A DNA stretch of 64,000 nt, from assembly GCA_964187785.1 (NCBI GenBank), contig OZ076409.1, positions 20,710,001 through 20,774,000 on the forward strand, read 5' to 3'. A program made the position numbers and the translations under genes. Positions 1 through 60,437 of this stretch are shown piece by piece. The DNA is from Amphiscolops sp. MND2022 (Eukaryota). Each line of letters opens with the position of its first letter. Within the stretch, counting starts at the first letter, position 1. The notes beneath the pieces were generated by a model. That model was not told where the DNA came from. It worked only from the letters and a program-made list of their open reading frames with translations, and did not search any database.

Positions 1-1440
1 GTGAAATTGGAAACTCATATCAAGTGCTAACTGATGCTAATTTGATATCAGCAAGTTCAGTTCACGGCTCAAAGAGCGTCTCAGTGAAATTGATAACACA
101 TTGATTTCTCTGATATTGGCCATTAACACTATTACACCAAAAGAACGTTGAATCAACTAAGCTGTATCAAAACCAAGTTAATGCGGAACTGTTTATTGAG
201 AAACAGTAATTGCCAACAAAACAAAATTGATGGAGTGTAATCAATGCGGAGTTATAAAACTTGGGTACGGCGGAGTCTACTACACATTTTATACAGTCAT
301 AAAAAGTGGAATGACTTCTTGGCGATGATCTGGCAGGATGCATAAGTGTTGTATGTTAGAATTGAAATGAGGGCCCAAAGGTTGACATAATAGGAACAAA
401 CAGTGTCTAATGTCGAGGTTAGTAATTTCAAACAACTTGAAAACTAATTTCAAAAGCAACTAGAGACAAATCCTTCCCAAGAGAGTACTCCTTTGATGAG
501 AACGTTCAGGGTATCTGCGAAGTAACGTCTGTAAAGTTAACACATTTTACCTTGAAATCTGAGAACCAGAAACACAGGATGTTCTGTCCATTTTTCGATT
601 GCGAGCACCAGTACATTTAATTGTAACCTAAAATTCAGGTTTATATCATACTTCATAATTGAACGTAGCACCACCAAGAAAGGAATATAACAAGCATAAC
701 ATAATTTTCTCTATTTGTAACGTCAACCACCTAGCAGAGTACATCATAGAAGTGGGACAATGCCTAGATTGCTTGAACAGGAGACCAGTGTCTTACTACA
801 ACCTAGACATTAGTTTTTAATCCCAAAATGGTCTCCTAAAAGGGACTTTTCCTATACGCCTAAGGAGTCTCCTCAGTTAGAGCTCCGAGGCGACGTGCCG
901 GCTCTCTCAAAGTCCGGACACGTCCCACAAGCCTGTAAAAACAATTCCTAATGTTCCTGCGTGTTCCTACATACCTCCGAGGTCCAAAAACAAGGGTTTA
1001 GCCAAAGTGTATTCAATTAGTGAATAACGTCTAAACTGGGTGAAATAAGGGGTAAAACATCACCAAACATCTACAAAAACCGCAAATATGGTACAATAGA
1101 TTCAGAAAACATCAGGCGTCAGTGTCAGCGAGCCTTGGTCTTGGACCTACTAGGTGGCACACGCAAAATATGCGAACTTCTGAGTTTCTTCATCTCTTGG
1201 GCCATTCTTCGGGTTCTGCTGGCAGCTGGGACGTCTTCCGAGGGAGATGGCACAACACGGCGATTTCGGGGATACTTCTGTGACGGTGTGTTCTCTCTCG
1301 GGTAGGGTGGGGGTGGTTTGCACTTTTTTTCATCATCCTTTTCAATTTTCAGTACCTGTCAGGTCGGCCATCTTGATTTAGAAATTTTGCTATCGCACTT
1401 TTCATCGAATTTTTGTGACGTCTTTTTGCTGGACGTTACA
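1..1440. repeat. Copy 1 of a ~1.4 kb near-identical direct repeat (copy 2 at 5100-6495); begins before the window
   Basis: GTGAAATTGGAAACTCATATC at 1 and 5100; copies match to ...GGACGTTACA; ORFs at 1318 and 6373 nearly identical; copy 2 has a 44-bp deletion (offset 5099 becomes 5055). Confidence 0.95.
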
Positions 1441-4400
1441 TCCTCCCCGGGCCGTAGTTTGTCGTCCTCGACAAACGAAAGTGGATGTTCACGTCTTGGT
1501 TGCCATCATCCAGTGATCCAGTGATGCTGTTGTGACATAGTACTTCAGGAATCTAAATGGAAGTCATTGCCCAAGAACATGTTATTGCCCAAAAACACTA
1601 GTTTTTGCCAGCCTAGCAGGTTTCCTTGGATTCCACACCAACAATGGGTTCTAGCGCTGGAATAGCGTTAGCAACTTTAGACACTTAGCCTTTTATTCAA
1701 AACATTTTCAAACTTTTAATTTCGCACCAAGATTTCAAAATTTCTAGCACCTTATTGCACCTGCATAAAAAGCACTAATCACAACAGGTTTGGCACTGGC
1801 CAGGGGCCCACCTGATAGGTTAGGTTTTACAAAATGCACGATAGCACTTGAAAAGCGAAAAATTAAAGTAACGGCTGTGGTCTTGCAAAAGTGTCGTAGT
1901 TCATAGCCAACAGAGACTGCACAATAAAAAGCACAAATAGAGAAATAGATCCCAAAAAATCAAAAATATCACCAAAAGCGAGGACCCATTCAATCTATTG
2001 AGTTAGCAGTGTACTGTACGCTCAGATAAAGGTGTTGTGTAGGTAATATAGGCACAAGTGTATATGTAAAAGATGGAAATAAACTGCTTTTCAAGAGGAT
2101 GATTATGTCGATAGCGATGATAGACTATGACCGAGGGAAGTTAAAAAATCAGGTATAGTGGATCATTAAAACAATGAAAACAGTCTTTGGCATTGAAAAC
2201 AAGTTTCAGAGCAATCATTCGAGTTCTAAAAGCACGGCCGCAGGCCAAGCAGTTCTCAGAGCTTCGAAGCTCTAGGTGTTTCATCATGCTTGGTGTTGAT
2301 TCCTTTCGGCAGAGTACTGGTGCTCCCCGGGCCAATCTCTTGTCCGGTGTTTTCACATCGATATGGTTCATGCAACTGTGGTACCGAGTACCGATGTTCA
2401 CCTTAGGCATGAATCGAGCAACGAACATTGATTTTTGAGAAGCCTGCTTGGCTACAGATGTTAGATTGTCTGAAAACTCCGTTTGTCACTCATGCTGCGA
2501 TGTTTCTGGAGGGCACAAGTAATAACAAAAATGTGATTAGAGACTACGGGTAGTCTTTGGGGTGAGTAGGAGGAGAGACACTGAGTTTGAAGTGGTTTTT
2601 TGCCTTACGATCGTAGTACGATCAGAAAAAACGTTCTTTTTCAACTATGGTAGTCACTTGTGTACTTGTTGTTCTGTTTTGAGACGCACTGCGTTCAAAG
2701 ACCAAACCTCTAAAAGTGCCTATAAACGTGCTCCAGCACCCACGGGGTACACAAAACATCGAGCATGCATGTTCACAATGGATAGATTGCACTTGGGTGA
2801 CTTTGATAGCAGTCAGGAAGCGAGTTTCCATTTTCGGTTTTTCACCTCTATGTCTCGTAGACCGGTTTTCTCAGAGACCCGACATCTTAGGGTCAGCTTA
2901 GCACTAAACAAAGTAATTCAAGAAGATGTCCTGAGGGCGCTTGGTATGCTAATCGGGTCGTCTTGGCCCTCACTGGTACGTACACTGAGAAAAACTTTGT
3001 GATTTTTTGCAAAATTTCCCAAAATCAACAATTTTTTCGTCAACATGCACCTCCGGGGAAGGTGAAAATCACTTCTAGCGCTGCTAGCGACCTGAAAATT
3101 TCACACCATCTAATACACTGACTGAATCGTGGGGAACAAACCTCCGATTGCGCTAAAATTGACCCTGTGTGTGTCGCGGTCTTTTGACAATGTTCACTGA
3201 AAATTTGACTATGTCGTGAAGTTCACAAAAAGTGGTCAAACTCGCCTTCTAGGCGTCCCAGCTACCTGAAATTTTGCAGGTGAGCGTAACTTTTGCCCAC
3301 GTAACAGAAAAACACGGCGTCGAGGTGCCTGAATTAGTATCTGGCGATTTGAAGTGACAAAACCTTGATGTACCAGAGGTACCACTTTTTCGGGTCAAAA
3401 ATCTCAAAAATGTCAATTTCTCAGCTTTGGCTAGTAGCCGGCTGCTCAAATTGCACAAATCGTCGTGATCTAGTGCCGTGCACACGAAAATGCAAGAATT
3501 TCAGTGTTGGGATACCTGCGAGGTATTGCACTATGCTCAACTAAAATTCAAATTTTTCGACATTTTCACACGATTTTTGAGCAAAACTTCGGCTAAGATT
3601 TCTCGATCACTAGTAATGCTAGCGCTACGAAAATTACACCACTATCGTAACTTTTTATGGTCTACACGCTGGTGCAATCCGTTTGAGGCTGCTCCTACTA
3701 GGAGAGATTTCGACCTGTGCTGGAAGCACAACTACATGGTTCCCAAAATGTCGCAAAAATAACGCGTTTTCGGCTATTTCTCAATAACCACTGGTTGGAA
3801 TCACTCGCGGTTTTCTGCGTTTGTGACGTTGCACTCTATAATAACAGAAAATAGGCAAGCGAAACCTGGTAGGTTCCAAATAAGGTCTCTCAAAAAATTC
3901 TCAAGTTACACCTTTTACATTCTGGGAACAATGTGAAATATACGTATTTTCCCTAGCAACTTTTCATTTCTCGGTTCCCAGATGTTCGGGATAGTTCTAA
4001 ACGTAACGTATTAAGGTGTAATAACTTTATTCACGGGACTGGGATTGTTTCAATTATTAGTTTTGATGTTATAACTCTCAGGTCTATGGGGTCCTCTACT
4101 CAGGTCTATGTATATCGAAGAAAATCAGAAGTTAAAGTGTCAATTTATATTGGGGAATGCTAACAATCGTCTTGGCAGTAGTGTTTTGTACTACCAAGCT
4201 TGGGAACAACGTTTTTGGGCTGATCTCAAAGCTTGGGAACAAGTGCCCAAGGCTTCGCCCTCACCAATTTTGGTCTTTTAGGCCAAAATTGATGTTTTCT
4301 CTATAAAAATCGCTAATTTTCTCAATGTTTTAACAATTTAGCCCAAGCAATTTTTCGGTTCCTGACCTAGCAGGTCTGATGGAACGTTTTTTTTTATTCC

Positions 4401-5000
4401 CACTGGCCGTATCCTTTTCCACTAGATTTCAACTTTCAACACCTCAAAAATCGGTATTTGAGCTATATATGGTGTTATTTTCAAGGTTTTCGCGCTCAAA
4501 TTTTTAATCAACTGGTCTAAACACCCACAGGGTATTTTCCCCAGTTAATTTTAGTGAAAACAGGCCTGGGAGTATGCTTTTTGGGCCGATTATTAGCAAG
4601 AATTAGCAATATAACCCGATTGACGTGGGTATACGGCAACTGCAGGGGTGCTGGAGGTGTGATGTCGGAGGTGCTCACACACTGTCGTCAGCTAATTGGG
4701 GCCTTCAGCACTCGTCCTCCCGGTCCCCATACATTGCTAATTTACTGAAACGGAGCTACAAAACCCTTTATAACCAGTTCCGGATAGGCCGGATTAGCAT
4801 TTTCAACAGGTATTATCAAAATACAAGGGGTACGCTGTCTGAAATCGTCGATTTTCGGTTTCAGACCTCGGAAATACGCAGGACACGCAAAACAAACACT
4901 AGTACAGGGCCCACAGGGCTAGAATAAGGCAATAAAAACAATCTAGGACTCTCCTACCAGTTTTCCTAGATCCAGACCTAGCAGGGCCGGAAAGCAGGAA

Positions 5001-5097
5001 AATTCATATCATGCGAAAATTCATATCATGCGACAATTCATATCATGCGACAATCATATCATGCGACAATTCATATCATGCGACAATTCATATCATA
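5001..5097. repeat. 17-bp tandem array (AATTCATATCATGCGAC) x ~6
   Basis: Units directly visible, just upstream of repeat copy 2; could be a subterminal array of a DNA transposon (inference). Confidence 0.9.
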
Positions 5098-5099
5098 TA

Positions 5100-6495
5100 G
5101 TGAAATTGGAAACTCATATCAAGTGCTAACTGATGCTAATTTGATATCAGCAAGTTCAGTTCACGGCTCAAAGAGCGTCTCAGTGAAATTGATAACACAT
5201 TGATTTCTCTGATATTGGCCATTAACACTATTACACCAAAAGAACGTTGAATCAACTAAGCTGTATCAAAACCAAGTTAATGCGGAACTGTTTATTGAGA
5301 AACAGTAATTGCCAACAAAACAAAATTGATGGAGTGTAATCAATGCGGAGTTATAAAACTTGGGTACGGCGGAGTCTACTACACATTTTATACAGTCATA
5401 AAAAGTGGAATGACTTCTTGGCGATGATCTGGCAGGATGCATAAGTGTTGTATGTTAGAATTGAAGTGAGGGCCCAAAGGTTGACATAATAGGAACAAAC
5501 AGTGTCTAATGTCGAGGTTAGTAATTTCAAACAACTTGAAAACTAATTTCAAAAGCAACTAGAGACAAATCCTTCCCAAGAGAGTACTCCTTTGATGAGA
5601 ACGTTCAGGGTATCTGCGAAGTAACGTCTGTAAAGTTAACACATTTTACCTTGAAATCTGAGAACCAGAAACACAGGATGTTCTGTCCATTTTTCGATTG
5701 CGAGCACCAGTACATTTAATTGTAACCTAAAATTCAGGTTTATATCATACTTCATAATTGAACGTAGCACCACCAAGAAAGGAATATAACAAGCATAACA
5801 TAATTTTCTCTATTTGTAACGTCAACCACCTAGCAGAGTACATCATAGAAGTGGGACAATGCCTAGATTGCTTGAACAGGAGACCAGTGTCTTACTACAA
5901 CCTAGACATTAGTTTTTAATCCCAAAATGGTCTCCTAAAAGGGACTTTTCCTATACGCCTAAGGAGTCTCCTCAGTTAGAGCTCCGAGGCGACGTGCCGG
6001 CTCTCTCAAAGTCCGGACACGTCCCACAAGCCTGTAAAAACAATTCCTAATGTTCCTGCGTGTTCCTACATACCTCCGAGGTCCAAAAACAGGGGTGAAA
6101 TAAGGGGTAAAACATCACCAAACATCTACAAAAACCGCAAATATGGTACAATAGATTCAGAAAACATCAGGCGTCAGTGTCAGCGAGCCTTGGTCTTGGA
6201 CCTACTAGGTGGCACACGCAAAATATGCGAACTTCTGAGTTTCTTCATCTCTTGGGCCATTCTTCGGGTTCTGCTGGCAGCTGGGACGTCTTCCGAGGGA
6301 GATGGCACAACACGGCGATTTCGGGGATACTTCTGTGACGGTGTGTTCTCTCTCGGGTAGGGTGGGGGTGGTTTGCACTTTTTTTCATCATCCTTTTCAA
6401 TTTTCAGTGCCTGTCAGGTCGGCCATCTTGATTTAGAAATTTTGCTATCGCACATTTCATCGAGTTTTTGTGACGTCTTTTTGCTGGACGTTACA
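5100..6495. repeat. Copy 2 of the ~1.4 kb direct repeat
   Basis: Near identity to 1-1440; similarity ends abruptly at 6495. Confidence 0.95.
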
Positions 6496-48631: not shown

Positions 48632-49209
48632 AGGGGGTACAAGTACTTGGAATTGGGTATTTGGTTTTCGACAAAAATAGTATTTGAAATTGTATTTGGG
48701 TCCGATTTTCTCCTAATTACTTGGTATTTGGGCAATTACTTGATTTGCTATTTGAAAACCCTGCTTCTTTACCACCACGAAATTGATGTCAAACTTGCCT
48801 AGCCTGAAAGCAGTTGTTCCTAAACCTATTCGGAGTCGTCTTGTATACGAAATAAGTTGTTCTGCTTGCTGTGGAACCTATGTTGGACAAACCATCCGAC
48901 ATTTAGACGTCCGAATACGCGAACACAATAACAAAAGCACGCCAGTGGGCCAACACTTCTCCAATTGCGGATTGGAATTGAGCTTGGAAGACGTGCGAAT
49001 ACTGACAACTGAAAAGCATCCCAAAACCCTATTGGCACTTGAAGCTGTACTCATTCGTAGAAAGAAGCCCATCCTCAACACGCGCGACGAATTTGGAAGC
49101 CACACGCTGAACTATGTTTTTTTAATGTGGCAGTAGTTCTGCCCTGTAATCATTTAGTGATTGTACAAAACCTGGTTTTGCAACTAAATGTTTTTATTTT
49201 AGATACAAT

Positions 49210-49253: not shown

Positions 49254-49558
49254 TCAACACTTGTTTTTTAATTCCTCAATTCCCTACTTTCGTTGCAGAC
49301 CACGGGTGTGTGTCTTCTCCCCCCAACATGATGATACACATGGCACTTGATTGATGACGAAGATCCATGATATCTGATAGAGGAAAAAAAGTTTTTTATG
49401 GGAGGGGGGTTTAGCAAACAGGATCCAATCGTCCTGTTCAAGTAACTACCACTTGCGTAATGTTGAAATCTTTCAAGACCTATTAAATATATCGCTGTGT
49501 ATAAAAATAATAAGTGCTAAAATAATATCAGCGCCTTGAGATTGTTGTTCTCTTTCAG

Positions 49559-51004
49559 AGTATACAATGGAAAAATCACATCATTGTACGGTGGACAACT
49601 GTTCCCGGGTTTTCACGAAGAAAAGTAAATTGCGGCAACATTTAGCTTCGACTCATAAAATCTCTACTGATTACATCTGTAAAAAATGCGATGCAGTTTT
49701 TGACTCACAAACTAATTTAACTCGTCATAACAAAGTCCACGTTGGGTACAACTGTGAGAAGTGTTCGTGTTCTTTCTCTACGTGGTCAGAGCTGACAAAA
49801 CATTGCAAAAGCGAACATCGAGTGGTTGCAATCAAATGTGGTGGCTGTCGAAAAAAGGTCATGTCGAAGGAGGATCTGGTAAAGCACTACCCTGAGTGCC
49901 CAAAGCTTAGCGAGCTGACATGCAAGTTTTGTTCTCGGCAGTTCTCCAGGAAAGGACTCCGAAAAACTAATAAAGCTATAATTAACTTCCACCAATTGAC
50001 GTAAGGCAGAAAGTTTCCATCAAATAAGTTCTGCCATATCTGAAATTTCGAGGAACAACGTAAGTGTAGCTATTTTTGCATCTACCTGGTGATACCTTAT
50101 TTATATTTTTGCTCAGCTTCATTTGAGTTCACGTGTCCTTGGGACACATGTGCATAAAAATTCTATAGAAGAGGGTTCTATGTAGGAAAAATTATGAAAT
50201 CAAACAAGGCGGGAACATCACAAGTCGGCGCCCGCCCAAAATTCAAAACAACAGCCCCAAAAAATGAAAAGAGAATTTGGGTTTCTAACTTTTTTTAATT
50301 CTTTCTCTTTTTATTCTAACTTTCAATTACGATAGCAGGCTGTTTTTGAAACTGATTCCTACTCGTCATGTCAGTAGTTGTAGAAAATGGGAGGTTGGCG
50401 TAATAATTTCTTTTTGATACGACTTTTTCCTCTCGCTTGATCAATTTCGTGATACGCTGAATAAAAATAGTTTTTCGGAAGCCTCGTCTCCAGGCCAATG
50501 AATGTGCGAATACATATACGAACAGTTCATGAGAAACAACGCGAATTCGTTTGTTACATCTGCAACAAAGCATTCCTTCATGCACACAATCACACAAGTC
50601 ACTTGGCAAATTGTATTTCTGCTCAAGAACGAGGTGAACCATTGAACAAAGCACCCACCTCTGATGGTATTACTTGTTCAGGGTGTGGGAAATATCTTTG
50701 TTACAAACGTAGTTGGTGGCGACATAAAAAGCGATGTGTCATGTTGAAGGACGCATCTAATAAAACTGAAGACTTTGGGGCTGCTTTGGGCTTTGACGAA
50801 TCTTTATTACATGGAGCGTCTTCTGAAGCCGCTGAAACTGTTCCCGGATGTCAAGCTCTAACTACTGACGCGTTGATGAGCGAACACGAGTCAGTATCGT
50901 CAGAAATGGAAACAGACTCAGACAGTGATGAACATTTATTTTCAATTGAATTAAATTATTTTAAAAAATTGTTATACCTGAATAGTTCAAATTCTTGTGC
51001 ATAA
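49559..51004 (+). CDS. TFIIIA/p43-like C2H2 zinc-finger protein (fingers ~4-9 plus an extra atypical finger); exons ~49559-49949 and 50494-~51004; upstream exons not located
   Basis: Acceptor TTTCAG ending 49558; HVGYNC..C...STWSELTKH resembles TFIIIA finger 6; joined frame CSRQFSR|PMNVRIHIRTVHEKQREFVC resembles fingers 8-9; acidic tail. Confidence 0.75.
49951..50486. mobile_element. MITE with 8-bp TSD TCTCCAGG inside a zinc-finger coding segment
   Basis: TIR AAAGGACTCCGAAAAACTA / TAGTTTTTCGGAAGCCTCG; TSD 49943-49950 and 50487-50494. Confidence 0.9.
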
Positions 51005-51110
51005 AATAGGACCCAATCCGAAGTAATAGTGCTTTTCTTCAAAGAGTTTATTTTGAATTGATTTTGCAAACTTGGGGCATGAAAAATTCCTCCGAAAACT
51101 AAATTTTCAG

Positions 51111-51517
51111 CCACAAAACGACCGTGTCACATACTCGACAGGAATATTAAATTTCATTTTGTATTCCGATCATAAATGTACATCACTGAATGCAGATGCC
51201 TCTGTACTGTCGAATACATTACCTCAACGACAACCAAGAAATGCTCCTGATTCCCAAACTGTCATCATTGACCAGGGTACCAATGAAAGTGAATCCCCGC
51301 TGGTGTCTGAAACGAAATCTGGTTTACTCAGTGAAAAACAAAAAGATGACATTGGCAGCAGTAAACTCGTCAACTCAGAACCGAATCTTGAGAAGGACAC
51401 GTCGTTTGAAATCAGCCTTCCTCCTGCTTTGAAGTTTCCATCAAAAGGTGTCCATAAATCTCGAAAGTTCACCATTGGACCGAAGAAAAAAATGAAAATT
51501 GAACATTCACTCATTAC
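51111..51517 (+). CDS. Possible downstream exon (Ser-rich, NLS-like PKKKMK)
   Basis: Open frame after TTTTCAG acceptor at 51110; no recognised domain and link to the zinc-finger gene unproven. Confidence 0.3.
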
Positions 51518-52068
51518 TAGGGGGAACCAAATGCTATAAATGCTATTAATGCTATAAATGCTATTTTCTCTTACATTTTGAACTTAATTGCTATTTTGTC
51601 TGTCGCCTGAAAACCAATATTATTTCACACGATAAATAAACATACACTTACTTACTACTTATTTTGTTGGACACCTTGAATGCATAAAGCAAATAAATAT
51701 AACACGCCTACTCATCTTTGTTGTATTTTAAGATCAACTATGCCTAAAATACCGCTTACTAAGCATGAGAAATCTTCAATTTATGCTCAAAAATATCCAT
51801 CGGAATTCCGTGTTTTACCAAACGGAGAATTAATTTGTAAATTATGCGACAAGCCCGTTAACTCGGACAAAAAGTTTGCTATCGACAACCACCGTTAATT
51901 GTAATTAACAATATGCATCCAAGTAATTGTTTTTTCAATAGTTTTTGGGCGAGTAAAATACAAAAAAATCAATTTTAAGTGCTATTTTTAGTGCTATTTT
52001 AAAGTTTTTTGAGTGCTATTTAATAGCGCTATAAAAACGTTTGTTAGTGCTATTGTTGGTCCCCCCTA
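51518..52068 (+). mobile_element. Internally deleted hAT-like element, 8-bp TSD CTCATTAC
   Basis: TIR TAGGGGGAACC / GGTCCCCCCTA; TGCTAT subterminal repeats; N-terminal zinc-finger remnant LICKLCDKPV...KKFAIDNH. Confidence 0.88.
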
Positions 52069-52348
52069 CTCATTACAACGACAACAATTAACACGATCAA
52101 CGTTTAGTCGAGTAATTCTTAATTCTTGATATCTTAATGATAAAGTGGCTGAGGATTTGTTTTGTTTTGGTGACTTGATAGATTCGATATATAAAGTTTT
52201 TTAAAAAAAACATTGTGATGTAACTTTTTCCACAGCAGAAGGTGTCAGTTGCTGAACAATTCTCAATATGTGTAGATGCAAAATAGGCAATGCTGTAGGT
52301 GTGAAAATCTGAAGTTTAGATCCTACTGATCTGCATTTCCATCTTTCT

Positions 52349-52544
52349 CAGGGGTGGTTTTAGGATTTTCTCAACGGGTGGGCGGATTTTCCAAATGTGG
52401 GGCACACAGTAACGAGAGCACCAGTTGAATACTTGAAAGTAGGAAAACTCGGTTCATTTTACCGGCTGTGTCATCAATTCATTTTATGCATCTCCAAAGG
52501 GGCAGGCTGCCGCCTTCCCAGCACCCCCCTTAAAACCGCCCCTG
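52349..52544. mobile_element. hAT-type MITE, 8-bp TSD ATCTTTCT
   Basis: TIR CAGGGGTGGTTTTAGG / CCTTAAAACCGCCCCTG; TSD 52341-52348 and 52545-52552. Confidence 0.9.
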
Positions 52545-55500
52545 ATCTTTCTTGCCTGAAATGTGAAACCCTATGTTGGAAAGAGGCTCTTCCAGAGCAC
52601 GAATAGTGGTAGTGAGGATTACAAGAAGCGATTGGCTAATAGCTACGAAATACAAGCAGCCAAATTTTGAAAACATTTTTTATAGTTTAATAAAACTACA
52701 CGCAAGCAGCTAGACAGTTTCCTCTTTGGTTTTCACCGATCAAAAATAGTGATTATATGCTCTGGGTCTTTTTACCCCAGTTTTTCGTAACCATTTTTCA
52801 AACCAAAATATATTTAACCGACCTAACCAAGTTTTGGATCGAAAACAATATTACCCAATTAATCGAAAGCTTCTTTGATGATCAGGTGTTAAAAACCACT
52901 GATGAGTGAGTCAAAATTCGAAAAGGTGAGGAAACTTGAGAAGGCTTTAGGCTTTTCAACTTTATACTTCTGTAATAATATAAAATGAGTTCTATTCGGT
53001 GGTGTTCCTTCGTACAGTTCTTGTATAAAATTTGCAATTTACAGTTGCTGAGTGGTCCAGAATGGTTAAATTGGACGGACATCAATAGTGCAAGTCGCAA
53101 CTCAATATCAGCTCTTTCTTTGGTTCTCATACGGAATAGTGATCAACCCCAGAAATTACCAATCAGGTCCTGAGATATGGACCTGATGATTTCAAGAGTG
53201 ATATATTGTCCCATTTTAGTCATAAATTATATGATCATGCTTAGGAGTGGCCAAAAAAGTCGACATAGTTCGCAAAATACTTTTTTCTCGAAATAGTGTG
53301 CCTTGGAAACAATTGTTCGTATCGAAGACCATTCCTGTGTGTTCTAATTTATTTATTATACGGTTTATTATACACCTTAGTCAGGATTTTAGCCGTTCTG
53401 ACACAGCGTCAACAAGAGCAGGATGGGCGTGAACTTCGGGACATCAATTGGACCCTTCATGGGAATTTTAATCTTAAGTAAGACCCTTTGGACTTGCTAG
53501 TGTGACCACATTCGAAGCTGCGTATGTGTAGCTGTTTTATATCTTAAAGTGTACCTGTTAAAATGTATCTGCTCAAATTCCAGATATAAGCGGAATTTTT
53601 CGCAACAACCACAAGATTATGTTGCACATGAATTCTTTCCAATACCAGCAACTTTGTAATTTGGTGTTTACAGAATGCGGGATATCCGAGGTTAGTTTAA
53701 TCTGTTTGATTTAACTACAATAACAGTTTTCGAATGCTTGCTTGTTCCCAAACAACGGGATCTTTTGTAGCTTCAACTGACATTTGTTATGAGTTAGCGT
53801 CGTCGGTGCATTGTACCGACTTATATCAGTGAAAGGCGACGTCAAATATTTGTTCACAATGTTCGTTGCAGACATTGACCAATATTCGAAAGCCAAATTT
53901 GGTCGTATCGACCTTAGTCGCAAGATAAAATCCGTCAGCTCTCGTTAATTGTACTTGGATAGCTACATGTATACATGGTACATTGTGACTAAATGCATTG
54001 TATCTTCATTTTGGCATGAAGTTATTTTTGTGTCAGACCTTGTGATATACAACATTTGCTCGAACTGCATCTCCGTGCATAGTTTAGAATACAGCAACAG
54101 CATTTACTGGAGGTGCAACTCTCAGCATATCTTAGTCTACAACATTGCTACAACTGCATCTTGGTGCATTGTTTGGTGGTCCATCTACATAAAAGTTTAA
54201 ACTACATCAAGCGTCTCTTTCGAGTAAGTTTTTTCTTGGAATTTCAATTGATATATATTTCTGAGGTGCAGTATTAACGCTAATTTTCAAAGGCTGCACA
54301 CATTTAAGGTTATGAAATCTATTCGAACAACATTTTAAAGGATTTTTTTATATTAAAGGATCGGCCTTAAAATTTAAAGGATTCGAAAAAACACATTTCA
54401 AATACTTTAAGGGGAACGTCATACAAGACAAGACAAATTTCTCAAGAACTGTTCATACGATTTTCTATAATATTTAGCACAGTCATCATACACTCAAAGG
54501 TGCTCCTGCGTGCGCAAAGGCATCAAAATCGTATGATTGGGATGTGAGAAACATAGCCAAAAATAGCCCAAAAAATGGCCATTTTTCGATTTTCTCAAAA
54601 ACTCCATACGATTCGAACGAAATTTTCTACAGTCATTCTACACCATATTAGATATCTTGCTTGGATTAATACGTGTCGCACCAAAAAACATCAGCAAAAA
54701 ATCAAATCTATTGGTTCGACCCATTATGGTAAGCACCTGCACCGAAAAATCCAGAATAATTTTCAGCGAATTATAAGATTCAGCGAATAATTTTCTCACC
54801 CTGCTATTCGTATTTATAATTGCTGTCAAATTTCTTTTTTATTTTGTTTAAAGGAAAAAGGATCCTTTAAAGGAAAATCCTTTTAAAGGATCGATGTTTA
54901 AAGCAAGGATTTTTTAAAGGATCCTTTATAGGATCCTTTAAAGGAAAATAAAAAGGGACATCACTGCGAACATCAAATGGCGATGTATCAAGATTAGGAA
55001 AAGCCCAAAGCAACCTTTCAGATGTCAATTGCAGACCCAAGTTGTCGTTTTCAGCCGAATCGACATTCCTTCAGGCAGCTATAAGTAGTCTAACCAGAAT
55101 TTTTTTGGACAATTTTTTATCTCCTTGGTGATCTGAGAACAGAAAAATCGTTATTTTTGACTGATTTTCAGTATCGACACTCCGAAGCGGGTCCCTATAA
55201 TTTATAAATCTGTCTTTCTCTTAATGCCGAAAAGTTCTTCATAGTTGGAAAATCTTTTTTTCTTCTTTAGAATGTTACCAGCTTGTTTTATTACTCTAAT
55301 CTAGGGGTGTACCGGGCATCAAGTCCGGTCCGCTATCCGGTCGGACTTCAGAAAAATGTCCAGTCCGGTATCCGGTCAGTCTTCTGACAGAATTCGGCCG
55401 GAAAAATATCTTCGCAAATGATCGCATATCTCAGATGAAAATTGTTTGAAACGGTCAAAATTCAATTATTTTGTTGAAAATTTCCGGCATTTACTTTGTT

Positions 55501-56657
55501 TTTCATTATACTTCTTGTCCAATTCCAAAAGCAGTCTGTCGTCACTTATAATTGAGGATCATGGCCAGTATCCGGCTTTGATGAGTCCTGTCCGGCAGAA
55601 CGGAAATTTTCCTGTCTATTGCATCTCTACTATAGCCGATATACATGCTGTCAGCACCGTCTATAGTGAAGTTTCTCAACGTACAGTAGTGTTTGAAAAG
55701 AATGAGAGATTGACTACATAAAACCGCCAACTTTGACATCCAATATCTCAATCAATTACAAGTTAACAATTTTGTTTGAAAGTTTTGTTTCAAAATTGAA
55801 TCTAGATTACAGATGTCATTGTTTGGAAAATCTTTGACAATTAATTAGAAAATTAAAGAGGACCCTTTATTTGTTTTTATAATTATTTTAAATTTAAACC
55901 TATACAATTATATATTTTCCATTCAATGAAAATTGATTTTGAGCGCAATTTTCGTATGAGTTCAAAAAGTATCGTTGGTTTAGGAAGTGCGAAACCTTTT
56001 GATTGAATGTATCTTTCGGCTTCATATCAGCCAATAATATTGCAGATTTTAAGTAAATGAGCGTTATCATTCATTGCACGTTATCAAACAGGGCACTAAA
56101 AGCTCCATTCTTTTTTAAACACTACGCATGTTGTAGTTATCTGGTTCTTTCTTTCGCAATGAAAAACCATCCAGCGTAACGTTCAATTCAGGCACCAACT
56201 GGTCTCTTGTGCATCATCGCTGTATTCGAATTTATTCTGGTGCTTACCACGTGTGGCAGTTTTATGCGGTAAGAATGTAAAAGATGCGTTTCGTAATGTT
56301 GTAAAAATGTCATTTTATTGCTTTTCACGTGGAGGAACACGTTTCCAGGCATCAAATTAAGACGTCAATAATCGGCGTTATCTGAAAACAACTCACTGTA
56401 ACATGAGAAAGTTCATTCAACATTGAACGTCTCATCTGGCCTTTTGTCTACGATGATGCAATATTTTGGACGCGAAATTTGATTGGTTGCCGAAAATGCG
56501 GAAAACATGCAAGAATGTGTAAGCGCAAAAAACTGCCGTGTCTGCCTGCTGTTGACGCACTATACGCGATGCTGACTGTATACTAATGCAATCGAGTGGA
56601 GGAAAAAAAGTTCTGTGAATTGGTATTGGCTTTGGTTCTGAATCTCACCTTTTAGAC

Positions 56658-59600
56658 ATGTCTTACCGAGTGGTTGTGGCCGGAGGTGGAACTGCGGGAC
56701 TCACCATGGCTATCAGGATGGCACGGGCCATAGGCAAACAGAACGTGGCCCTCATCGAAACCAAGGACACACATTATTACCAGGGATCATCTGCTTATTC
56801 AACACCAAATACCTACTCAATTTCCTACAATTTTTTTATATTTTGCAAGAACAATCCTATCGCGTGCGAATACCGAGCAAAAACATTCATTTCAAGAAAT
56901 ATTGCTGATACACGTGCGTACATTGTTTTCACGACCGAGTATTAGATAATGCTCGTCATTCGTTTCCTCCAACGATTTGCCTAAGATAGTTGGACAGTTT
57001 TAAAAAAGCCCAAAAGCGTTTCTCTTATTCTAATCTCTTCCGTTTTGGTTTCAATCAAAAGTTTTTCACCTTCAGATTGGTTCGAATGGAGACAATTTTC
57101 AAAAGTTTGTTTCCTGGCTGATTTTGGAAGTAGCTAGAATTGTCAATTTTCGACTACTTCGATTATCATTTTTATCAAATTTTTGCATTCAATTCTCTTC
57201 GATTAGACCTTACTCGATAATTGATTTCAAGTAAGTATAACCAAGGGCCCCTCGCGGGCTACCTTGGTGCTAGAGTTTTTACTGCTGGGATCAGTTTTAT
57301 ACTTTTGAATTCCCAAGAAACTAGCGCCCAATTAAATGGGATTTTTAATTTTTTGTTTTGTTCAAAGATTTCTTGAGTCATCAATCTATTAGTTATCGGA
57401 CGTATGCTCAACCATTGTATTCCTAGCTTTACTTTTTTGAATAATTTAATGATTTTCGGAGGTCAATACAATTAAGGTACAAGCAAATTTTTGTCAGGAA
57501 TTGAGTTTGGAACAAGATCAAATTTTTCCTAATGAAATTAGTATGATAATACACAATCAATTACTTTTCTAAAACTGAGGAGGTTGATTATCCCTGGTTA
57601 CCTCTAGCCTATGTGGACTTTAGTGGGCGGGGGTTTGAAGAACTTTGACAAGTGTCACCGACCAATGAGCAGTTTGGTACCCAAAGGACTGCATTGGGAG
57701 AAGCAGAAAGTCAGCCAATTTCAGCCTGCTGAAAACTGCGTTACGCTAACCAATGGAGCTAAGGTTAAATTAATATTCACTCGTTTATGCATTCTTTACT
57801 GAATTCAATTGGTGTCGTCTTTAATTATTGCACATGACGAAGTCAATGTGCATTGCAGTCCAGCTAAGAAAGTTTTTTTTTTCCACAATAGCCAACTTCA
57901 TAATAAGCGCCTTTTAGAGAAAAGCCAAAACCCCAGAGAGATTCGAACCTGCAGCCTCCCGATTGCGCGGCATAAGTGTTAACCACTGTGCCATAAGGAC
58001 GTTATTGAATGAAGTTGAACTGTTGAATATATACGCATGCGATTAAAATAATATATATACGCATATTAAAATAATCGATGTCTTCGTCATGTGTTGCGAA
58101 GCACCGCTTCGCCTCTGTGTTACACTTGCGATAAGCAAGTGTTATGGGAAAGTGCGGGTGCTTTTTTTTCCGCGCGACAACTCGTTTCAGCCCGCAAGTC
58201 GCATAGTTCAGGCGTTCGTGGTCTAGTTGTAAGATGCTTGCTTTTCAACCCAGAGGGCTCGTGTTCGAACCCGTGCATATGCGCTAATTTTTTTACAAGT
58301 ATTCCGAAGCAGAAGATTCTCACTTTTTCGGCACTATGAGATCCCCTTTTCGGCTTTGAGACTTTTTTTCGAAATTTTTCAAATATCCCCAGAGGTTCCT
58401 CCCTTCAATTTTTCTTGGTTTATTTGCAACAGAACGAATGTTAGAAAATCCCAAAGGGTCCCGTTTTTCAGATTTTTCGGCACTATGAGACTGTTAAAAA
58501 TTCTCATTTTTTTTCTAAAACTTTTCAAAGTCTCCAAAAGGTCCCCCTTCATTTTTTTTTGAAATTTCGCAAAACGATGGATATTTAAAAATCTCAAAGA
58601 GCCCCCTTTTACAGTTTTCGGCTTTGTGAGATTTTTAAAAATAATAATTTTTGTCTTAAAATTAGGTTTTCTCAGGCCCAGCACTCTATATCCGATTTTT
58701 TTGTAAAGACCGGTTTTTTTTCTAATTTGTTTTCATCGAACCCCCCCCTCCCGCAATTTTTACCAGAAACGAAACGTTTTGCGAGCATTAAGGACTGCTC
58801 AAGGTTTTCGGCACTATGCGACTTACCGGAGACCAAAAATTTCGAAAAAAATCCTCAATTTTCTGATTTTTGAAAGGTTTTCGTTTGAGAATGATGGGTT
58901 TTTGCTGTTTCCAGTTGGGGTAGAATGGTTTTCGAAAATTTATGCGTATCCCTTTGGGTATTTTTTGGCGCTGTAAAATTGATGAAATTGTAACAATGTC
59001 CGTTTACCCTTGCCTCTCCGTATGATGTTGCTTATTTGGTTTTCTTCAAAAGTTCGCAACTTTCTTCGCAAGTGTTTGCGAAGCACGGCTTCGCCTCTGT
59101 GTATAAATCTGTAAAAGCAGATCTATCAAGTGTTGTATACTTGTTAAACATCGGTTTTCGAGAATTTAGGTTCGTTTGTGACCAGTGTTTGGTTGATTTG
59201 TTCATTGCATCGCCCATTGTGTTATCATTTTAGCTGCATTATGAATATCTGATAGTTGCTCTGGGCTTGGAACTTCAGTACTCGAAGGTGCCCGGCGTGT
59301 TGGAAGGAATGGAAGAAAGCGCCAATGTTTGCAGTAATTATCACTCACTGTATTGTCAGAAAACTTTCAAGGCCATTGAGAACCTGAAAAGTGGACTCGC
59401 TCTTTTCACTCACCCTAACACCCCTATCAAGTGTGCTGGTGCATCTCAGAAGATTTTGTACCTCGCTGAGGAAAGGTTACGTGAGAGAGGGGAGCGACAG
59501 AACGTGGACTTCGCATTCGCGACTCCTGGGCCCGCTATCTTTGGAGTAGAATTGTATGCAAAGGCTCTTCAGCAGATTGTAAAAGAAAGAAATATCAAGA

Positions 59601-60437
59601 CATATTTCAAACACAATCTTGTGAAGCTCGACCACAAGAGAAATCTAGCTGTTTTCAACTCCACGCAAGATGCCGTAAGCTATCTATTTCCCTAATTTCG
59701 TGGGTTCCTTTTCACTGATGTATTGACTGTGTACTGAGTTTGCTAGTTGCACGCAATTTACTCAAGTTCTTACCAGAGTCAGCATTTAGGACAGTTAGCA
59801 TTTACTAGAGTTATCATTTACCAAAGTTTTAGTTTTAAAGATTTATCAGCCTTTCATTTCCGGAAAAAGTTGTCCCTATGGTGTTGTCCAAAGTTTCATT
59901 TTTTTGCAGGAAAATCCTCGAGAAGTTGAAATTGAATACAGCATGATCCACGTCACGCCTCCCATGGCGGCACCTGTTGCTATTCGAGAGAATGTTGACC
60001 TGGCTGCTAAGGATACGGGATACTTGGACATTGACCTATTGACTCTTCAGCACAAAAAGTACCCCAACGTTTTTGGCATTGGCGATAACATCAACATCGG
60101 GGCCACCAAAACAGCTGCAGCAGTAGCCAGTCAGACTGGTGTTGTGGAAGCCAATCTGAGAAGTTTGATGAAAAACCGCAGCATGAAAAGACAATATGAT
60201 GGCTATACAAGTTGTCCCTTGGTTACAGGCAAAGGAAAAGGCCTCTTGGCCGAGTTTGATAAGAATGGGGTGCCTCTGGAAACATTTCCCCTGATAAGAC
60301 AAGATAAAGAAACCTGGTACTGGTATCACCTTAAAGCCACCATGATGCCTCTTCTATACTGGCACGGATTCATAAAGGGACCTTGGAGAGGTCCTGGATT
60401 TTATCGCAAACTCCTACGACTTGGTTTTTCTTCATAG
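56658..60437 (+). CDS. SQOR: Sulfide:quinone oxidoreductase; exons 56658-56783, 57608-57763, 59234-59674, 59910-60437 (~416 aa)
   Basis: FAD motif VVVAGGGTAG, HYYQ|PMWTLVGGG, catalytic PIKCAGASQK and YDGYTSCPLVTG, FGIGD; all introns phase 0; introns 2-3 GT-AG, intron 1 GG-AG. Confidence 0.93.
56781..57596. mobile_element. Old TIR element coextensive with SQOR intron 1
   Basis: CAGGGATCATC (56781) vs GATTATCCCTG (ends 57596), 10/11 inverted match; putative TSD only 4/8. Confidence 0.55.
57828..59102. mobile_element. Composite repeat in SQOR intron 2: TIR-flanked tRNA-like unit (57831-58094) plus Helitron-like unit with terminal hairpins
   Basis: IR CACATGACGAAG/CTTCGTCATGTG; direct repeat TTGCGAAGCAC.GCTTCGCCTCTGTGT at 58095 and ~59077; tRNA-like 58210-58283; TTTTCGGCACTATGAGA subrepeats shared with ~63560-63620. 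Confidence 0.6.

Follow-up and report, generated by a model that had tools for sequence, protein, structure and literature searches.

The window analyzed here, a 64,000-nucleotide (nt) stretch of the 1.07-Gb Amphiscolops sp. genome (G000:C1:20710001-20774000), carries two unrelated genes, one encoding a TFIIIA-type zinc-finger (ZnF) protein and the other a sulfide:quinone oxidoreductase (SQR). Each is interrupted within a conserved motif by a miniature inverted-repeat transposable element (MITE), and we consider it very probable that inserts of the ZnF and SQR type are spliced introns of transposon origin, with GG or GA as the donor. The features of the two genes are as follows (window positions; ^ marks a splice junction).

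49559 to 49949, + strand: TFIIIA-type zinc-finger exon, fingers 4-7 and the first half of finger 8 (ATG at 49567; PF22110; 1tf6)
49943 to 49950, + strand: left 8-bp target duplication TCTCCAGG, which would give the exon AG and the donor +1 G
49950 to 50493, + strand: predicted GA..AG intron of 544 nt, CAG^GAAAGG..CTCCAG^G, the sole exact removal ending in AG
49951 to 50486, no strand: MITE of 536 nt whose inverted ends have decayed; it is related to the CAGGGGCTCCGAAAAA family
50487 to 50494, + strand: right 8-bp target duplication TCTCCAGG, which would give the acceptor AG
50494 to 50962, + strand: exon with the second half of finger 8, finger 9, one further finger and an acidic tail
56658 to 56783, + strand: SQR coding exon 1 with the FAD-binding motif, ending HYYQ; its final 3 nt, CAG, are the element terminus
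56773 to 56780, + strand: left target duplication ATTATTAC, a 4/8 match to 57597-57604
56781 to 57596, no strand: MITE of 816 nt, inverted ends CAGGGAT(C/A)ATC
56784 to 57607, + strand: predicted GG..AG intron of 824 nt; acceptor TAG at 57605-57607, 11 nt beyond the element
57608 to 57763, + strand: SQR exon 2 (PMWTLVGGG...)
59234 to 59674, + strand: SQR exon 3; flanking introns GT..AG, common to the paralogue
59910 to 60437, + strand: SQR exon 4 and stop; complete frame of 416 aa

In the ZnF gene, finger 8 is split mid-finger by the 536-nt insert (ends AAAGGACTCCGAAAAACTA / CGAGGCTTCCGAAAAACTA) between two exact copies of TCTCCAGG. Nine equivalent registers would remove the insert plus one repeat, and just 49950..50493 ends in AG, starting with GA. 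This removal restores CKFCSRQFSRPMNVRIHIRTVH and the C-x2-C-x12-H spacing; unspliced, the frame meets a stop after 18 codons, and the nearest in-frame GT/GC joins lose 3-4 residues or gain 17 inside the finger. An exact 8-nt repeat in this register was found in 0/154 GT introns of the survey described below. The interior of the element is unique save for a nested 50-nt repeat, and its ends resemble the CAGGGGCTCCGAAAAA family over ~20 nt only. Because the first C of that family would make this donor GC, the present GA probably arose later; the GC state is seen in a tubulin intron (cag^GCAGGGTTTCC..GGAAACCCTG TAAATAG^g). The gene is the only match in the genome to the TFIIIA-specific finger family PF22110 (66 candidates scored), its protein aligns to TFIIIA chain 1tf6 at residues 106-188 (fingers 4-6), and the TFIIIA-specific finger 6 is present along with the rest of fingers 4-9. 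No homologues of the exon appeared at E<=0.001. An acceptor precedes the exon (window 49550-49567), 8 nt from an ATG, and may act as a trans-splice site, yielding a TFIIIA-like protein without fingers 1-3.

The SQR gene follows a different geometry. Its 816-nt element splits the frame at YYQ^P, with the predicted intron reading CAG^GGATCATC..GATTATCCCTG GTTACCTC TAG^ (edges CAG^GGATCA..CTCTAG^CCT) and inverted ends matching at 10/12 positions. Against 3/3 homologues, the GG..AG junction scored best, 13 points over the best GT/GC join. The motif YYQP is found in 117/121 SQR homologues, none of which has a residue between Q and P; an in-frame TCT^GC join (+9 nt) would add 3 residues there. The genome holds two SQR matches, the window copy and a paralogue on C2, and the latter is continuous at the YYQ^P site, with no insert. 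In turn, an AAG^GGATCT..TTGCAG intron is present in the C2 copy and missing from the window copy, and the remaining two introns are GT and common to both. Both frames are intact (416 and 414 aa, 74% identical; dN 0.17, dS saturated), and neither copy evolves faster (private changes 20-23 versus 23-28). Among the listed matches to the window SQR, that of the acoel Symsagittifera roscoffensis scored best (57% and 218 bits, with 203 bits for the best named non-acoel), which makes an acoel host likely, if weakly shown. A DNA search of the genome found no further copies of the MITE interior, and two other loci (L360 and L361) carry the SQR terminal type. If GG splicing did not occur, neither SQR of this animal would include the FAD-binding exon.

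The original prediction, drawn from the window, was that a conserved motif in two unrelated genes is cut exactly by an insert bounded by terminal inverted repeats (TIRs), and this is what both junctions hold. That splicing of AG^G(non-T)...AG alone restores the genes stood for the motif and failed for the frame, since in-frame GT/GC joins exist. The 8-bp target duplication that it described is exact at ZnF and has decayed to 4/8 at SQR.

Donor usage was surveyed in the introns of 35 tubulin and 18 dynein loci, with all joins scored against homologues, any G..AG or AT-AC pair allowed, and the filter fixed before intron ends were inspected. In total, 166 of 255 junctions passed (154 GT, 7 GC, 4 GG and 1 GA), giving a GG/GA share of confident junctions of 3.0% (CI 1.0-6.9%) and 93% GT-AG in a sample biased to two gene families and short-intron genes. 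Among the 89 dropped junctions (67 GT, 10 AT-AC, 5 GA, 4 GC and 3 GG), all 10 AT-AC calls were low-scoring. All five surviving GG/GA introns read CAG^G(G/A)A, and four lie at positions that no paralogue shares. One GG intron splits the dynein Walker A motif (P-loop GPAGTGKT), 62 points over any GT/GC join. Inverted ends matching at at least 8/12 positions in the SQR geometry were found in 4/5 GG/GA introns and 9/154 GT introns (p=1.3e-4). SQR-type inverted ends also occur in some GC and GT introns; at three GT/GC introns (L162-L163, 291 nt; L155-L156, 377 nt; L166:833-1575) inverted ends come with partial 8-bp duplications, which suggests that some canonical introns were transposon-made as well. 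Taking as a yardstick a related acoel with 29,351 genes and 3.2 introns each, i.e., ~94,000 introns, a share of 1-7% extrapolates to roughly 1,000-6,000 GG/GA introns.

Elements also interrupt recognizable exons of a cadherin repeat, a FYVE protein, Dopey, an ABCB transporter, a Vps10-type protein and an S-Me-THD domain. At each of these sites a frame-keeping AG lies 5-15 nt beyond the element and canonical alternatives alter 12-42 nt, and domains continue across the insert at L258 (profile 2-46 and 53-130), L200, L235, L211, L243 and L237. The Vps10 element, with a 7/8 duplication, belongs to a 28-copy family; the predicted splice adds two codons, and no homologues of the exon were found at E<=0.001. 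Open frames alone gave eight more candidates (L201, L212, L223, L240, L244, L354, L360 and L361). Searching with the right-end pattern alone returned 33 matches, mostly chance; an intact partner end was present in 4/30 examined, all four in long frames. With a looser two-end pattern, most matches came from one family, which has its true ends beyond CAG and was used as a negative set; 3 of the 30 loci from this pattern were further candidates (L354, L360 and L361), none with a Pfam match. A GLTP case was rejected as a new intron, the element having inserted into a pre-existing one. The GG/GA donors compared, 18 in all, read AG^G-N-A in 18/18 and have +5 G in 16/18; 11 of them came from searches whose patterns already specify some of that context. 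They fit an 11-letter donor consensus at 5-9 positions (GT donor mean, 6.8). The inserts are real, and predicted GG/GA introns occur genome-wide. Transposon origin with target-derived acceptors, as proposed for the window, recurs at ~20 further loci, and so does the predicted relaxed 5' rule, which proved narrow (AG^G-G/A-A, mostly with +5 G; ~3% of sampled introns).

Source families were visible in the assembly. Elements of 457-487 nt with ends CAGGGATG..CATCCCTG numbered 68 intact versus 1 in the control, and the CAGGGGCTCCGAAAAA family 19 intact copies versus 0. The first 50 of the 68 CAGGGATG copies, at 39 independent sites (11/50 loci share flanks), comprised one family of 28, one of 6, one of 2 and 14 singletons, and 24/50 had an exact 8-bp duplication; among CAGGGGCTC copies examined, 13/15 had one. 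The predicted introns L223, L243 and L244 all fall in the 28-copy family, and DNA searches with three intron interiors found no full-length sister copy. For the inverted ends of hAT elements we take the consensus to be (C/T)A(A/G)NG; a hAT-type start, CAGGG, is shared by the SQR element and both families and has decayed at ZnF (AAAGG / CGAGG). That MITEs become introns is supported, as the original prediction had it, yet most copies are ordinary non-coding insertions: the majority of CAGGGATG copies lie outside frames, and ~9/39 independent sites look exonic. Some MITEs are carried within another repeat, with identical flanks in 9 and ~11 copies (L227, L232, L239 and others; L293-L306). The window itself has two ordinary MITEs of this type outside both genes.

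51518 to 52068, no strand: MITE with TAGGGGGAACC ends and exact CTCATTAC duplication
52349 to 52544, no strand: MITE with CAGGGGTGGTT ends and exact ATCTTTCT duplication

From the sequences, the empty paralogous site, the intact frames and the source families, all read directly from the genome, we infer that transposon inserts likely serve as new introns, with GG, GA or GC as donor, and that the major spliceosome takes them out. Three geometries could account for the cases. In geometry A (SQR and most others), the element starts CAG^GGA(T)G and would land just before an exonic NAG, for which its own CAG would substitute; GG would then be the donor and the displaced NAG, 11 nt beyond the element, the acceptor. 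Since CAG replaces the displaced NAG, protein length would be unchanged. When the acceptor triplet was swapped to CAG, the protein stayed the same or changed by one residue in 5/6 cases checked, a comparison by which the SQR acceptor must once have been CAG and has since turned TAG. In geometry B (TFIIIA), the duplication ends in AGG, so that its last G and the first base of the element would form the donor; that base is C in the family, probably giving GC at first and now GA, and the acceptor would be the AG of the second copy. In geometry C, a duplication with AG^GT would produce a normal intron. The element sequence CAG^GGATGT fits the donor consensus at 7/9 positions and may pair with U1, U5 and U6 at -3 to +1, +3, +5 and +6, offsetting the wrong +2. 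Selection would have retained only insertions having a usable AG, and +2 may later drift among G, A and C. PMC11732430 proposes that joint U5 and U6 pairing compensates for +2C in GC donors; the same logic would extend to +2G and +2A.

For the relaxed rule no U1, U5 or U6 change is visible, nor would one be needed. A change opposite +2 was found in 0/21 full U1 matches (42 candidates scored), the U6 ACAGAGA was intact in 10 full U6 genes, and U5 loop 1 was intact in the 6 read of 48 U5 genes. Some U1 variants have A at position 6 or U at position 9 (L030, L036 and L037; L026), none opposite +2; the position-6 A would be able to pair with a +3 U, and T at +3 is the commonest base in GT donors (37% of 144). 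Genome searches matched no U12 or U6atac gene, which does not prove their absence, and loss of the minor spliceosome is possible. U12-type introns are marked by an RTATCC donor and a TCCTTAAC branch, and no such branch was present at the two window acceptors. Among proteins, the U1-C zinc finger is ordinary and Prp8 is near-identical to human over the 303 residues read (L312:93-392 = G000:C4:84164092-84164391), with P1720R, P1724V, Q1766H and, in the alpha-finger, a Gly at human Ser1524, two residues from yeast Q1594. PMC12707134 connects Q1594 with the 3' site and not with +2, which leaves this change as only a lead, and with AAG acceptors at just 7/155 it has no obvious 3' effect. We regard as conceivable, though doubtful, the wider proposal that hAT ends starting CAGGGA are a running intron factory. 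It would have made GG introns on the order of a thousand and still make them from young families, with GG drifting to GA or GC; the same route would explain the AG^GA-A donors of Eurytemora and Oikopleura, and tolerance would be set by spliceosome proteins (the lead being Prp8 1524 Ser-to-Gly), not snRNAs.

Several observations weigh against spliced transposon introns. An AG at +11 was not enriched at CAGGGATG copies (5/100 ends, like neighbouring offsets), so the MITE families are not gene-seeking. In favour of introns, long frames on both sides accompanied 4/5 ends with AG at +11 and 11/95 without (p=0.0016; 100 ends, 50 copies), but this test counts both ends of an element and includes 11/50 loci with common flanks, so that the ends are not independent. 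No clear hAT transposase with matching ends was found within ~1.3 kb downstream in 30 loci (150 PF05699 matches scored). In the survey, the eight dropped GA/GG calls are most probably misalignments in the main, and where the dynein GA intron lies, one paralogue has a GT intron. Neither geometry A nor B is a clean fit for the C2 SQR intron, and a GT donor of good quality lies in frame 51 nt inside the ZnF insert. A profile built from the ZnF gene's own fingers located no fingers 1-3 in 99.5 kb upstream, for which reason TFIIIA is a likely, not a certain, name; TFIIIA is essential, and the case for an essential single copy is weakened.

If the inserts were spliced from nearby ordinary GT/GC donors, slightly altered proteins would result, and such donors are at hand: the TCT^GC join in SQR, GAC^GTAAGG (+51 nt) and GCA^GT (-9 nt) in ZnF, an in-frame GT at +9 nt in one tubulin, and a GT at +5 inside the TIR. 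However, these joins break invariant motifs, with extra residues in 0/117 SQR homologues and finger spacing lost at ZnF; the nearest canonical join is off by at least 18 nt, up to 45, at 9/18 loci, and at no locus is the +5 GT in frame with the nearest AG. We therefore find this explanation very unlikely. Removal by a route other than the major spliceosome, be it somatic DNA excision, a hairpin-guided RNA cut or the minor spliceosome, seems to us just as improbable. The ends can pair (about -21 to -23 kcal/mol), excision of the element and one repeat from DNA would restore the ZnF gene, and branch-point motifs are weak, but the terminal bases are mutated, geometry A leaves the element CAG in the exon, the 3' end follows an AG at 5, 9, 11 or 15 nt, and +1 G and AG are retained at all sites; the failure to match U12/U6atac in the genome, though no proof of absence, points the same way.

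It is less probable still that the insertions killed gene copies and left pseudogenes. Tubulins and SQR are duplicated and the TFIIIA-like fingers 1-3 are missing upstream, as this would allow, yet both SQR copies would have to be dead despite intact frames and equal rates, with 5.9 stops expected in SQR at 10% neutral divergence (P(0)=0.003). Moreover, element ends and duplications have decayed and exons have not, and the dynein, Dopey and ABCB cases agree with intact genes. Least credible, to the point of being negligible, is a GT misread as GG/GA by assembly or base-calling errors: ~20 independent loci are alike, the 68 intact family copies repeat the pattern, and GG is mirrored as CC in the opposite inverted end, which argues against a base-call error.

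In the available texts, introners and other MITE-derived introns (PMC9860276, PMC12130899 and PMC11282704) share with the Amphiscolops cases inverted ends, a target duplication, one splice site each from element and target, and a protein length kept or altered by few codons. The present introns differ in the GG/GA donor, the 8-bp duplication with hAT-type ends, the 3 element nt left in the exon, interiors mostly without a sister copy, and families in which most copies are not introns. The words "acoel" and "hAT" are absent from the main text of PMC12130899. Introns do stand at new positions, as the empty SQR paralogue site and 4/5 unique survey cases indicate; gene enrichment was not found (~9/39 sites exonic, AG at +11 in 5/100 ends), and because of this, and with splicing predicted, we class them as MITE-derived introns and not as an introner family. 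The hAT element Ds of maize is spliced from pre-mRNA as an intron with a host acceptor, using GT donors and giving imprecise products, whereas removal here is predicted to be exact and fixed in conserved genes.

The donors resemble those of the copepod Eurytemora affinis (PMC5714493) and of Oikopleura dioica (PMC7072748), where the parts consulted also describe an obligate exon AG, A at +3, lineage-specific positions and an unchanged U1; the AG^G-N-A pattern is RNA-verified in the copepod (PMC5714493). In those animals GA dominates (~10-12% of sampled introns) and those parts give no transposon source, whereas here GG dominates (~3%) and sources are visible. Fritillaria borealis (PMC11282704; PMC13326754) likewise combines MITE origin, an animal host and recent gain; there, ~95% of introns depart from GT-AG, with loss of the 3' AG and changes in U2AF and m6A, whereas here most sampled introns are GT-AG and both +1 G and the 3' AG remain. 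The portions available of PMC9911081, a Hofstenia preprint and an annotation preprint make no mention of GG/GA donors. Our search, which left supplements and most subscription papers outside, turned up no account of GG donors arising from hAT-type ends or of non-canonical donors in acoels; transposon introns and GA/GG donors are each known, and we found nothing published that connects the two in an animal.

In animals, few clear cases of intron gain show their source; in a set of 835 animal and plant genomes, PMC9860276 has them in two animal groups. The genome studied here brings together three geometries, the elements that act as source, products both fresh and decayed, and a paralogue with the site empty. 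GA/GG donors such as those of a copepod and a larvacean thereby gain an origin that can be tested, and the introns form a natural substrate set for how the spliceosome reads the +2 base. Annotation tools that accept only GT/GC donors will cut short genes of this kind, both SQR copies and the TFIIIA-type gene among them.

Other repeats and gene arrangements were also noted. Window 14000-49000 consists largely of retroelement remnants, and shortly before the ZnF exon, at 48756-49130, lies a GIY-YIG frame of a Penelope-like element. Three U1 genes, each of a different type (L024, L038 and L031; G000 C13, C3 and C12), share one foreign 5' flank, 99.7% identical over 1500 nt in two of them and encoding a reverse transcriptase with zf-RVT; it is likely a young non-LTR retroelement targeting U1 snRNA genes. 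U5 genes form a tandem array of >30 genes with ~680-nt spacing (G000:C6:35069340-35133981), and U6 genes lie in inverted pairs on C3.

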